From contig WLKK01000001.1 of NCBI GenBank assembly GCA_009701305.1, positions 140 to 64,139 on the forward strand: a DNA stretch of 64,000 bases. The letters run 5' to 3'. Under the pieces are notes generated by a model that made no database searches, had not been told where the DNA came from, and was given only the letters and a program-made list of their open reading frames with translations. The position numbers and the translations under genes were made by a program. Position 1 is the first letter of the stretch. The number at the start of each line of letters is the position of its first letter. This stretch comes from Actinomycetota bacterium (GTDB lineage: Bacteria > Actinomycetota > Actinomycetes > Nanopelagicales > Nanopelagicaceae). This document shows, piece by piece, positions 15,074-64,000 of the stretch.

Positions 15074-15150
15074 GTCCTCGTAGCTCAGTTGGATAGAGCG
15101 ATCGCCTCCTAAGCGGTAGGTCACCAGTTCGATTCTGGTCGAGGACACCA
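15074..15150 (+). tRNA. tRNA-Arg (anticodon CCT)
   Basis: Hand-folded cloverleaf: acceptor GTCCTCG/CGAGGAC, D arm GCTC-AGTTGGATA-GAGC, anticodon arm ATCGC-CTCCTAA-GCGGT, T arm ACCAG-TTCGATT-CTGGT, A73, encoded CCA. Confidence 0.93.
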
Positions 15151-35281: not shown

Positions 35282-35353
35282 TCCGCCATTGTGTAGTGGC
35301 TAGCACATGGGCCTTTGAAGCCCAGGGTCCAGGATCGATACCTGGTGGCGGAG
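35282..35353 (+). tRNA. tRNA-Gln (anticodon TTG)
   Basis: Hand-folded cloverleaf: acceptor TCCGCCA/TGGCGGA, D arm GTGT-AGTGGCTA-GCAC, anticodon arm TGGGC-CTTTGAA-GCCCA, T arm CCAGG-ATCGATA-CCTGG (unusual A54), G73, no encoded CCA. Confidence 0.85.
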
Positions 35354-35425
35354 CTCTCTTCCCCGGCTAGACCTTAGGCTTAACCCAGTGCAGTAGATAT
35401 AGAAGCTAGCAGAGGGGAGACATTC

Positions 35426-56062: not shown

Positions 56063-56138
56063 GCCCCGATAGCCCAATGGCAGAGGCAGAGGACTTAAAA
56101 TCCTCCCAGTGTGGGTTCGACCCCCACTCGGGGCACCA
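56063..56138 (+). tRNA. tRNA-Leu(UAA)-like gene with atypical 5-nt variable loop
   Basis: Acceptor GCCCCGA/TCGGGGC, 3-bp D stem GCC/GGC with loop CAATGGCAGA, anticodon arm GAGGA-CTTAAAA-TCCTC, variable CCAGT, T arm GTGGG-TTCGACC-CCCAC, A73, encoded CCA. It is 73 nt plus CCA. Confidence 0.7.
56111..56136 (+). repeat. Direct repeat copy 1 (tRNA-Leu T arm plus 3' acceptor), att-like
   Basis: GTGGGTTCGACCCCCACTCGGGGCAC is identical to 57853-57878. Confidence 0.95.
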
Positions 56139-56231: not shown

Positions 56232-57839
56232 TTGCGTAGAACTTATTTTTCTACAAAGGGGATTACTCGCGTATTACTCCTCGTAGCTGTGTTTGCTTCG
56301 ACATTTACATCGACGGAGATTGCCTCGAGCGCTCAACTCTACAAAGTTAGAATTGGGGAAATAGGGAAAACGGACCTTTTTTTTGTTGGCCACAAAGCCT
56401 TCAAATATACCGAAAGAGGTTATAACTCGTACTACGGTGCAAATCTATATTTAATTCCCTGCTTAACGGCAAAAGATTCTGATTGCATTGAGTCATTGAG
56501 TTATCGAGTAAGTAACTCGCAAGAATGGAAAAAAGCTGAGTTGGACTCAAGTTGGACAATTCCTGCAACTGGGGTCCCGATGATTGGATCCGATAAAGGT
56601 TCAAACGCTACATTCGTTATTAAGAGTCTAGTAGCAACGCCTGCTGACCCAGAAAATAATTATCCCGCCAGTGGAGCTACCTCCATCTGGAAAGTTTCCC
56701 AAACAGGGCATGACTCAAATTTTAGACTCTTTTTGAACTTTAACCTTAGCGGGACAAATCCTGATCCGAAATCAGAAAAAATAATCTGGAAAGAATTCAC
56801 CACTCAAGTGCTCCCAATCTCTGGTTATTTTCCACACTCAGGTGGAATCCCAAGCGGGAGAGCCGATAATTCTTTTGGAAATATTTCAGGGCTTAAAGTT
56901 AAAGTTAGGGTGGGGATCCTTAAACAAATCCTTAATGGTTGGGTGCATTCAAGAACGACCAACCCTGAACTATCGTATGGAGTTGACTCAAGTTCTGGGG
57001 AATTTGTGGACTTCTCAGGAGCTCCACTTTCTGTACCCACAGCGGAAGCGGTTATGGATGCAACCCAATATTTGTCTGTATGGAAAAAACCGTATTTTGA
57101 GGCCCTGGTAAAACTATATGGTTTGCCTGATCTTTCTGATCTCGTGAAGAATCCTCCGGGTGTAGGTATGTGGCCGTCCACTAGTGGCATCGAGCAGGGT
57201 GAATTGAAGATGTGGAGCGCGTATGAACCTTATTGGTCAAAGACAGCAGCTTCCATATCTTCTTTGTGGAAGATCAGTGGGGAAGGAAATCTAAACTTAC
57301 AAAAATTCAATTCATCTGAATGTGTCTCTCAAGGAAAAATCGATGGAATCCTTGCTACTAACGCAACGCAGTATTCTCCCACCCCACCTATTTTTGACGA
57401 AAGTAGCCAGGAACTTTCCTATCAACTCGCAGCCCCCCACTTTAAAGATGCTAATGAAGAATTCAAAGGTACCTATTCTCTTGTTATTTCTGAAAAGTTA
57501 GCCCATTGCATTTGGGGTAAATCGTTAACTAATGCATCTGCGAGAGTCTCGATTTTAAACTCTGATGGTAGAAGTTCAGTTGTGAGCCAATCTTTGAACA
57601 AACGATCAGGGTTTTACTATTTTGATGTAAATGGATTTGGTTTTTCTGCGCCAACAATTCGTATTAAATTAACACAGGATGCTGTTGCGGATTCGCCAAC
57701 TCCTTCGGCCACCCCAACTCCGAAGATTGCAATAGCGACCCCAAAGAAGATGAGCACCATCACCTGCATAAAGGGAAAGACAACCAAGAAAATAACTGGT
57801 GTAATTCCGAAGTGTCCAGCGGGCTATAAGAAGAAGTAA
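56232..57839 (+). CDS. Secreted/cell-surface protein of unknown function
   Basis: 535 aa with a TTG start and signal/anchor RVLLLVAVFASTFTSTEIASSA. A P/T/S linker is followed by a lysine-rich two-Cys C-terminal module, TITCIKGKTTKKITGVIPKCPAGYKKK. Confidence 0.75.
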   Translation: MRRTYFSTKGITRVLLLVAVFASTFTSTEIASSAQLYKVRIGEIGKTDLFFVGHKAFKYTERGYNSYYGANLYLIPCLTAKDSDCIESLSYRVSNSQEWKKAELDSSWTIPATGVPMIGSDKGSNATFVIKSLVATPADPENNYPASGATSIWKVSQTGHDSNFRLFLNFNLSGTNPDPKSEKIIWKEFTTQVLPISGYFPHSGGIPSGRADNSFGNISGLKVKVRVGILKQILNGWVHSRTTNPELSYGVDSSSGEFVDFSGAPLSVPTAEAVMDATQYLSVWKKPYFEALVKLYGLPDLSDLVKNPPGVGMWPSTSGIEQGELKMWSAYEPYWSKTAASISSLWKISGEGNLNLQKFNSSECVSQGKIDGILATNATQYSPTPPIFDESSQELSYQLAAPHFKDANEEFKGTYSLVISEKLAHCIWGKSLTNASARVSILNSDGRSSVVSQSLNKRSGFYYFDVNGFGFSAPTIRIKLTQDAVADSPTPSATPTPKIAIATPKKMSTITCIKGKTTKKITGVIPKCPAGYKKK

Positions 57840-57852
57840 ACGACTCGGGATG

Positions 57853-57878
57853 GTGGGTTCGACCCCCACTCGGGGCAC
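57853..57878 (+). repeat. Direct repeat copy 2 (orphan tRNA-Leu 3' end), att-like
   Basis: A 26/26 match to 56111-56136. No tRNA 5' half lies upstream. It starts 14 nt after the stop of the 535-aa ORF. Confidence 0.95.
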
Positions 57879-63109: not shown

Positions 63110-64000
63110 TTATTTAAAGAGTTGTAGATCAAACTTAGCTGTTGTCAGCATGTGCGGAATTGTTAAAGCCCAAATAATTACCAAAATCGTCCAAAGTAAA
63201 CCGGTGTCGAAATATTCAGGGCGAAAAACCATAAGTCCAACTGCTAAAAGAATTGTTCCGAACACGGCGTAAAGACCCGGTATAACAGCGGATATAAAAG
63301 CCATAAGTGGCTTTATAGAACGTGCATGCAAAAGAGCTTCAGGTAATTTAGGGACTAGCCGTGCTGTATGGCGGACTGCGTGCCAGCAACCGAAATAAAC
63401 GGCAAACGCAATTAATGGTGGTGCTAATAAAGACAAAATGGCTAAAAGAAGTAGGTCAAGTGCAGCTTGGAAATTCTTAGTTATTAGAAGAAGTAGCAAT
63501 CCAAACAGCGCTAAAGCCAAAGTGATATTTCGCAAGGTTTGATTAATCGAACCTGACCAATTAGCTATTTCAGGATTAATCCGGTTCAAGGCAGATAGGG
63601 CACGAGAATCTGTCAATGGCAAGATGACAGGCAAGAATCCGGCAGGTAAGGCATAAGCACAAACCTTGAGAAATCCATCTTTGTTTGTACCGCGCGAATT
63701 ATTCCATTGGCTCTTAAATGCGCCGTCACCAAATCCAAAGTGCAGAGCACTGATTACCAGAATTAATTGAAAACCTATCTGGTTCCATGTTGCTATCGCG
63801 TAACCCGCAGCGACTGCCAACAAGATATAAAAAATTACGAAAGCAATAAAGCGAACTCGTGATTCTCTCGGAATAGTAATTAAGTGATCAATTGCGCCAT
63901 GGGGAATGCCAATCAAAAGAGCAATAACCGCAATTACTATCTGCCCAGATAAAGGGAGTTCAAAGGAAATCAGATCAAAGATGCCAAAAGTAATGATCGC
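63110..64000 (-). CDS. blh: Brp/Blh-family beta-carotene 15,15'-dioxygenase (5' end probably beyond window)
   Basis: Four His boxes are present: GIPHGAIDH, ALHFGFGD, GCWHAVRH and LTIPHML. These are colinear with Blh as remembered (GLPHGALD, IHFGMADF, FIHSRRH, TVPHMIL). The reading frame stays open from 63916 to the window edge. Confidence 0.82.
   Translation of the reverse strand, partial: AIITFGIFDLISFELPLSGQIVIAVIALLIGIPHGAIDHLITIPRESRVRFIAFVIFYILLAVAAGYAIATWNQIGFQLILVISALHFGFGDGAFKSQWNNSRGTNKDGFLKVCAYALPAGFLPVILPLTDSRALSALNRINPEIANWSGSINQTLRNITLALALFGLLLLLITKNFQAALDLLLLAILSLLAPPLIAFAVYFGCWHAVRHTARLVPKLPEALLHARSIKPLMAFISAVIPGLYAVFGTILLAVGLMVFRPEYFDTGLLWTILVIIWALTIPHMLTTAKFDLQLFK

Follow-up and report, generated by a model that had tools for sequence, protein, structure and literature searches.

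A type I tRNA-Leu(UAA) gene in a freshwater acI actinobacterium belongs to a family found across Actinomycetota and in many phages

Introduction

A bacterial system with a short tRNA-Leu has been described in Streptomyces coelicolor, which has four type II tRNA-Leu species together with one type I tRNA-Leu(CAA), all of them charged by a single leucyl-tRNA synthetase (LeuRS) (Fan et al. 2019, PMC6614811). The kcat/Km of this enzyme (ScoLeuRS) for the type I tRNA is slightly less than one-half of that for type II, and Fan et al. linked features of the LeuRS leucine-specific domain (C-terminal LSD, around L732/G733) to type I charging. In the same work, U8:A14 emerged as an identity pair, how many nucleotides make up the variable loop was found to matter, and the E. 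coli LeuRS proved unable to charge the S. coelicolor type I tRNA-Leu (PMC6614811). Human mitochondrial tRNA-Leu(UUR) was not charged by ScoLeuRS (PMC6614811), and the identity sets of the mitochondrial and S. coelicolor tRNAs therefore differ. The published literature on bacterial type I tRNA-Leu is thin, Fan et al. 2019 being the only match in full-text searching; a review of tRNA identity (PMC9976931) mentions neither S. coelicolor nor type I tRNA.

Tabulated mycobacterial tRNAs provide a second point of reference. In both Mycobacterium tuberculosis H37Rv and Mycobacterium smegmatis, Leu-TAA and Leu-CAA are 74-nt type I tRNAs, each the sole gene for its anticodon, and mycobacterial Leu-CAG, Leu-GAG, and Leu-TAG measure 83-89 nt (PMC11541572 supplement). 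A short-loop tRNA-Leu(TAG) has also been described in a mycobacterial tRNA cluster (PMC6582537).

Here, we describe a tRNA-Leu(UAA) gene found in a 64,000-nucleotide stretch of DNA (the window) from a freshwater acI actinobacterium (Ca. Nanopelagicaceae). The gene is a real and ordinary actinobacterial type I tRNA-Leu(UAA) of a known family, whose sequence and conservation indicate a functional product. The short form is the normal UUA-reading tRNA-Leu of Actinobacteria, including M. tuberculosis, and of many phages.

Results

A short tRNA-Leu(UAA) gene with an intact cloverleaf

ARAGORN, run on the window, called a tRNA-Leu(taa) gene at 56063-56138 on the forward strand with the anticodon at position 34. 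Rfam family RF00005 matched 56063-56135 across the full model (1-71) with 58.9 bits (E 3.5e-10), above the gathering score of 29, so that membership in the tRNA family is supported by a full-length match as well as by ARAGORN. The gene comprises 73 nt followed by an encoded CCA, and the full tRNA reads GCCCCGA-UA-GCCC-AAUGGCAG-AGGC-A-GAGGA-CUUAAAA-UCCUC-CCAGU-GUGGG-UUCGACC-CCCAC-UCGGGGC-A-CCA. The acceptor stem is GCCCCGA/UCGGGGC, and U8 and A9 are present. The D arm (56072-56087, forward strand) is of the Leu type, with a 3-bp stem (GCC/GGC), a C13-A22 mismatch, and the loop AAUGGCAG. The anticodon stem GAGGA/UCCUC closes the loop CUUAAAA, which carries the anticodon UAA (56096-56098, forward strand) for UUA and, by wobble, UUG. 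The variable loop, CCAGU (56106-56110, forward strand), is 5 nt long, and its invariant U48 can form a Levitt pair with the invariant A15. The T arm, GUGGG-UUCGACC-CCCAC, is followed by the 3' acceptor strand and the discriminator A73. All of the identity and tertiary elements given for LeuRS recognition in PMC6614811 are in place: U8:A14, A15-U48, G18G19/U55C56, U54-A58, and A73-C74. A scan for promoter and terminator consensus sequences around the tRNA revealed nothing above the shuffled background.

Since only the 5 nt of CCAGU part the anticodon stem from the T stem, the molecule has the type I (class I) shape. With its 73 nt and 5-nt loop, it falls outside canonical bacterial class II tRNA-Leu, which has a variable arm of more than 10 nt and a length of about 85-90 nt. 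It falls instead within type I, with a variable loop of about 5 nt, and no gap was opened at that loop on alignment with Leu-TAA and Leu-CAA of M. tuberculosis and M. smegmatis. The anticodon is one of the two of the UUR box of Leu (UAA or CAA), and the D arm has the Leu-type 3-bp stem, 13-22 mismatch, and A14 A15 U G18 G19 Y A G loop.

The preliminary description of this locus had drawn the same cloverleaf of 73 nt plus CCA with a UAA anticodon and a 5-nt CCAGT loop, and the sequence, ARAGORN, and Rfam agree with it in every coordinate and feature. Its reading of the D arm as Leu-like, with A73, was borne out by the sequence and by the alignment presented below, and its assignment of the tRNA to Leu held up on the grounds of the D arm and the nearest M. 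tuberculosis tRNAs.

Leu isoacceptors are the nearest tRNAs in M. tuberculosis

The window tRNA was compared with 40 tRNAs of M. tuberculosis. Leu-TAA was the nearest, with 66 identical positions (86%), followed by Leu-CAA (83%) and then by Lys-TTT (72%); none of the 38 tRNAs other than the two Leu species exceeded 72% identity. The D loop AAUGGCAG matches GGAATGGCAGAC of the type II Leu-CAG and Leu-GAG of M. tuberculosis. The acceptor and anticodon stems resemble those of E. coli tRNA-Phe. A tRNA-Phe derivative with its anticodon changed from GAA to UAA was ruled out by the D arm, and Phe did not rank among the ten nearest of the M. tuberculosis set.

The Leu-TAA of M. tuberculosis and M. smegmatis ("Leu-4", PMC11541572) shares with the window tRNA the type I form, the UAA anticodon, a CCCAAU(U)GGCAGAGG D arm, an NNAGU variable loop, and A73, and comes from the same phylum. 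At 86% identity overall, the differences are one D-loop nucleotide fewer in the window tRNA and stem base pairs that differ in a compensatory manner. The S. coelicolor type I tRNA-Leu(CAA), for which the mycobacterial Leu-CAA was aligned as a proxy, is likewise an actinobacterial UUR-box isoacceptor of type I with U8:A14. Its anticodon is CAA rather than UAA, and the UAA isoacceptor of Streptomyces is the type II, regulatory bldA tRNA. Like the window tRNA, bldA is an actinobacterial UUA decoder, but it has a long arm, reads a very rare codon, and acts as a developmental regulator (PMC6614811), whereas the window tRNA is of type I and UUA is abundant. Animal mitochondrial tRNA-Leu(UUR) has the type I shape, the UAA anticodon, and A73 in common with the window tRNA; there is no specific sequence relationship, and the resemblance is one of shape only.

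The gene is conserved in Nanopelagicaceae

Upstream of the tRNA are genes for PEP carboxylase, mfd, mazG, eno, ftsB/DivIC, DUF501, ppx, and udg, an arrangement that is actinobacterial, and the G+C content of about 42-45% has no break at the tRNA. In a species-level genome collection, relatives of the Ppx protein come first from Ca. Nanopelagicaceae and Ca. Planktophila MAGs (62-90% identity) and then from other Actinomycetota. The exact UDG protein was found on many ENA lake-metagenome contigs, and in all ten contigs that were read the identical 76-nt tRNA follows udg directly. An assembly deletion, which had been raised as a possible source of the short form, is therefore excluded by the identical short gene in ten independent metagenome assemblies, together with about 20 MAGs.

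A tRNA-Leu(taa) gene of 74-76 nt follows ppx/udg in 21 of 24 Nanopelagicaceae-like loci (L013-L036); in the other three, the sequence retrieved contains no tRNA. Of the 21, 18 have a 73-nt tRNA identical to that of the window, and BLAST against those genomes gave 100% identity for the tRNA and only about 72-74% for the adjacent udg DNA. The variant tRNA of the remaining three loci (L026, L033, and L035) has compensatory changes in the acceptor pairs 6-67 and 7-66, and its anticodon-stem pair G29-C41 is replaced by C-G. Such conservation, together with a compensatory variant, points to a functional RNA under strong purifying selection and not to a pseudo-tRNA. A decaying pseudogene, which had also been considered beforehand, appears very unlikely given perfect conservation of the tRNA beside a diverged udg. 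At this locus, none of the relatives carries a long arm.

Type I tRNA-Leu(UAA) across Actinomycetota

Short tRNA-Leu(taa) genes of 75-77 nt were also found 3' of ppx in Actinomadura, Nocardiopsis, Cellulosimicrobium, an uncultured actinomycete, Jatrophihabitans, Nakamurella, Actinomyces, and Gleimia. Counting Nanopelagicaceae and seven other actinobacterial genera, the type I Leu(UAA) gene is located 0.05-5 kb downstream of ppx, as befits orthologs. No tRNA was present within 6 kb of ppx in Williamsia (L042/L043), in Acidimicrobiia (L049/L050), or in Streptomyces tauricus (L059). Given the S. tauricus result and the type II form of bldA (PMC6614811), a reading of the gene as the positional ortholog of Streptomyces bldA was rejected. 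Many Actinomycetota, though not all, therefore have type I Leu(UAA) linked to the eno-ppx cluster. Unlike the short actinobacterial genes, the Leu(UAA) of a Halanaerobiales locus (L057) is canonical, at 90 nt.

Alignment A1 brings together 16 type I tRNA-Leu sequences: those of the genera above, Leu-TAA and Leu-CAA of mycobacteria, and three from phages. Invariant positions were T8, C11-C13, A14, A15, G18, G19, A22-G24, A35, A37, T48, G53, T54, C56, A58, C61, and A73. Within the cloverleaf 99.4% of cells pair, and 16 of the 20 pairs have changes on both sides; none of 500 shuffles reached the observed values, and pairing collapsed to 31-53% in slid controls.

Several members depart from the common pattern. 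In Actinomadura macrotermitis (L037, 11685-11761) and Nocardiopsis prasina (L038, 8880-8954), both of them high-GC Streptosporangiales, the anticodon loop is CCUAAAA, with C33 in place of the near-universal U33, and the variable loops are 6-7 nt long; function may be relaxed or altered in these hosts, where UUA is very rare. The genes of Cellulosimicrobium (L040, 10384-10458) and the uncultured actinomycete (L041, 6953-7027) have the loop CUUAAAC, with C38 instead of A38, and the latter has the T loop GTCCGAG, with C55 instead of U55.

The window holds three tRNA genes, Arg-CCT (15074-15150), Gln-TTG (35282-35354), and Leu-TAA (56063-56138), which are ordered as in M. tuberculosis (1.025, 1.138, and 1.177 Mb; PMC11541572 table), although their strands differ. 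This order is consistent with long-range synteny of the region.

Phages carry many members of the family

BLAST against GenBank phages revealed annotated tRNA-Leu(TAA) genes of 73-76 nt in Streptomyces, Rhodococcus, Acinetobacter, Pseudomonas, and Erwinia phages and in cyanophage P-RSM6. IMG/VR was scanned with the signature CCCAA-N1-3-GGCAGAGG-N7-YTTAAAA (loci L064-L183), which yielded at least 119 contigs with a tRNA-Leu(taa) of 78 nt or less (119 of 120 among the matches listed). The variable loop is 5 nt, mostly NNAGT, in 111 of the 117 parsable phage homologs among the matches listed. The family is thus abundant in phages.

The phage tRNAs (e.g. Streptomyces phage Genie2, Acinetobacter phage vB_AciJM_313, cyanophage P-RSM6, and many IMG/VR contigs) share the CCCAA-N-GGCAGAGG D arm, the 5-nt NNAGU loop, and the UAA anticodon with that of the window, to which they are 63-93% identical (46-68 of 73 positions, median 57, among the matches listed). 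They differ in their divergent acceptor stems and in their location in phage tRNA clusters, and many of these phages infect non-actinobacterial hosts. The tRNA-Leu(UAA) of one 5.1-kb IMG/VR contig (L082, IMGVR_UViG_3300022745_000451) is identical to that of the window at 68 of 73 positions; this contig, classified as viral, may come from a phage that infects acI bacteria or may be a host island placed among the viruses by mistake. The hosts of phage copies include Acinetobacter, Pseudomonas, Erwinia, and Prochlorococcus/Synechococcus, and the loci L011 and L012 also carry type I tRNA-Leu(UAA). Charging of the phage copies in non-actinobacterial hosts is a puzzle, as the E. coli LeuRS cannot charge the type I tRNA (PMC6614811).

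The preliminary description had held that class I-shaped tRNA-Leu is otherwise known only from animal mitochondria. That statement was wrong in view of the Actinomycetota loci, mycobacteria, S. coelicolor, and phages, and the rarity that it implied is contradicted by type I Leu(UAA) at the orthologous locus across Actinomycetota and in at least 119 phage contigs.

An insertion at the 3' end of the gene

The 3' 26 nt of the tRNA, spanning the T arm, the 3' acceptor strand, A73, and C74 (56111-56136, forward strand), recur with 100% identity at 57853-57878 (forward strand), in keeping with the att-like repeat remarked on at the outset. The second copy marks the distal limit of a 1.7-kb insertion that abuts the 3' end of the tRNA. 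The sole cargo between the copies is a 535-aa ORF (56232-57839, forward strand), which had no Pfam or PHROG match; no integrase lies between the copies. The exact 26-nt att core had no match in IMG/VR, so that neither a candidate phage nor an attP for the insertion emerged from that search.

Relatives of the window cease to be homologous to it exactly at the tRNA 3' end, position 56138. The second repeat copy was found only in contigs of the window's own population (L001-L004 and L007-L010), to which the 535-aa ORF is also confined; neither L005, L006, nor any MAG relative has this second copy. The contigs L005 and L006, from sister populations, have different cargo at the same junction (GH116 or other ORFs). 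Together these features form the pattern that site-specific integration into a tRNA 3' end usually leaves. Immediately beyond the variable region come genes for a beta-carotene dioxygenase (BCD) and two lycopene cyclases (window about 63110-63916 and beyond; L001 17780-19427), in line with the retinal/actinorhodopsin pathway that typifies acI bacteria.

UUA is the commonest Leu codon in the window

Codon usage was tallied for 43 window ORFs (17,464 codons). TTA codons, which had been noted as visibly frequent, are the commonest for Leu, at 539 of 1763 Leu codons (30.6%, or 31 per 1000 codons); TTG makes up 18.5%. This abundance sets the window tRNA apart from a bldA-type regulator of rare-codon genes. 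Mycobacteria are high-GC and UUA is rare in them, whereas in the window genome it is the Leu codon used most. As TTA accounts for 31% of Leu codons, the window tRNA probably carries a heavy decoding load; a high decoding flux would hold if it is the sole UUA reader, as its counterpart is in mycobacteria.

Discussion

The above considerations strongly indicate that the gene product is a functional type I tRNA-Leu(UAA), the acI ortholog of an Actinomycetota family that includes those of M. tuberculosis and M. smegmatis. By analogy with ScoLeuRS, the single LeuRS of the cell would charge it with leucine. Such an enzyme would neither read the anticodon nor need a long arm, relying rather on the Leu-type D loop and elbow (U8:A14, A15-U48, and G18G19) and the ACCA end; leuS itself is absent from the window. 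The charged tRNA would then decode UUA, the most used Leu codon, and probably UUG by U34 wobble, and it may be the sole UUA decoder of the cell. The 3' end of this highly conserved core tRNA gene would serve as an integration target, leaving the DNA just downstream as a variable island. We consider this explanation as a whole (a functional type I tRNA-Leu(UAA), charged by LeuRS, decoding UUA, and used at its 3' end for integration) to be highly probable, with charging argued from the S. coelicolor system.

The gene might instead be redundant, a relic kept as an integration target while a type II tRNA-Leu(UAA) elsewhere decodes UUA. Streptomyces does have a type II Leu(UAA) in bldA (PMC6614811), and the window gene does sit at an att-like repeat. 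A relic is hard to reconcile, however, with 76 of 76 positions identical across genomes whose flanking coding DNA is at about 72-74%, with intact conserved tertiary positions, or with a sole variant whose changes are compensatory rather than disruptive. In the mycobacterial tRNA lists, moreover, the type I gene is the only Leu(UAA), and we regard redundancy as very unlikely. A horizontally acquired phage or island tRNA outside the core genome seems less likely still. Phages commonly carry closely similar type I tRNA-Leu(UAA) genes, that of L082 matching at 68 of 73 positions, and the downstream DNA is a variable island. The tRNA nevertheless lies on the conserved side of the junction, where homology with relatives extends across udg and the tRNA and breaks off precisely at the 3' end of the latter. 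It occupies the same place after eno-ftsB-DUF501-ppx(-udg) in all Nanopelagicaceae and in distant actinobacterial genera, without a G+C break, and IMG/VR yielded no match to the exact 26-nt att core.

We give the least credence to charging with another amino acid, for example through a tRNA-Phe or tRNA-Lys derivative with a mutated anticodon that deliberately mistranslates UUA. The class I shape would suit such a tRNA, UAA is one change from the GAA of Phe, and the GCCCC acceptor stem resembles those of M. tuberculosis Lys-TTT and some Arg and Thr tRNAs. Yet the D arm, with its 3-bp stem, 13-22 mismatch, AAUGGCAG loop, and A15-U48, is common to type II actinobacterial tRNA-Leu, and Leu-TAA and Leu-CAA are the nearest M. 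tuberculosis tRNAs by a wide margin; on these two grounds an origin from Phe or Lys is rejected. The homologous S. coelicolor type I tRNA is, in addition, leucylated in vitro (PMC6614811). With UUA at 3% of all codons, its mistranslation would be very costly.

Beyond the identity of this one gene, a broader reading can be put forward tentatively, at a little short of an even chance. Type I would be the ancestral, phylum-wide UUR-decoding tRNA-Leu of Actinomycetota, and the type II bldA a secondary replacement. The short tRNA would be the sole decoder of the commonest Leu codon in the low-GC acI lineage, and phages would have spread the family widely, including to hosts with a LeuRS that is not known to take type I as a substrate. 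The type II form of the Streptomyces UAA isoacceptor bldA hints at replacement. Were the broader reading true, the acI organism would be the first free-living bacterium relying mainly on type I tRNA-Leu.

For annotation, the functional type I reading means that the gene should be recorded as a normal actinobacterial tRNA-Leu(UAA), not as a pseudogene or an assembly error. In textbooks, and even in Fan et al. 2019, the type I tRNA-Leu of bacteria figures as a rarity; the loci described above show it phylum-wide in Actinomycetota and very common in phages. As an integration hot spot, the gene further signals a flexible genomic island in a bacterial group that ranks among the most abundant in fresh water. 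In acI bacteria the type I tRNA-Leu probably serves the most frequent Leu codon, and the lineage thereby offers a natural setting well suited to testing how, at high flux, LeuRS copes with two tRNA architectures.
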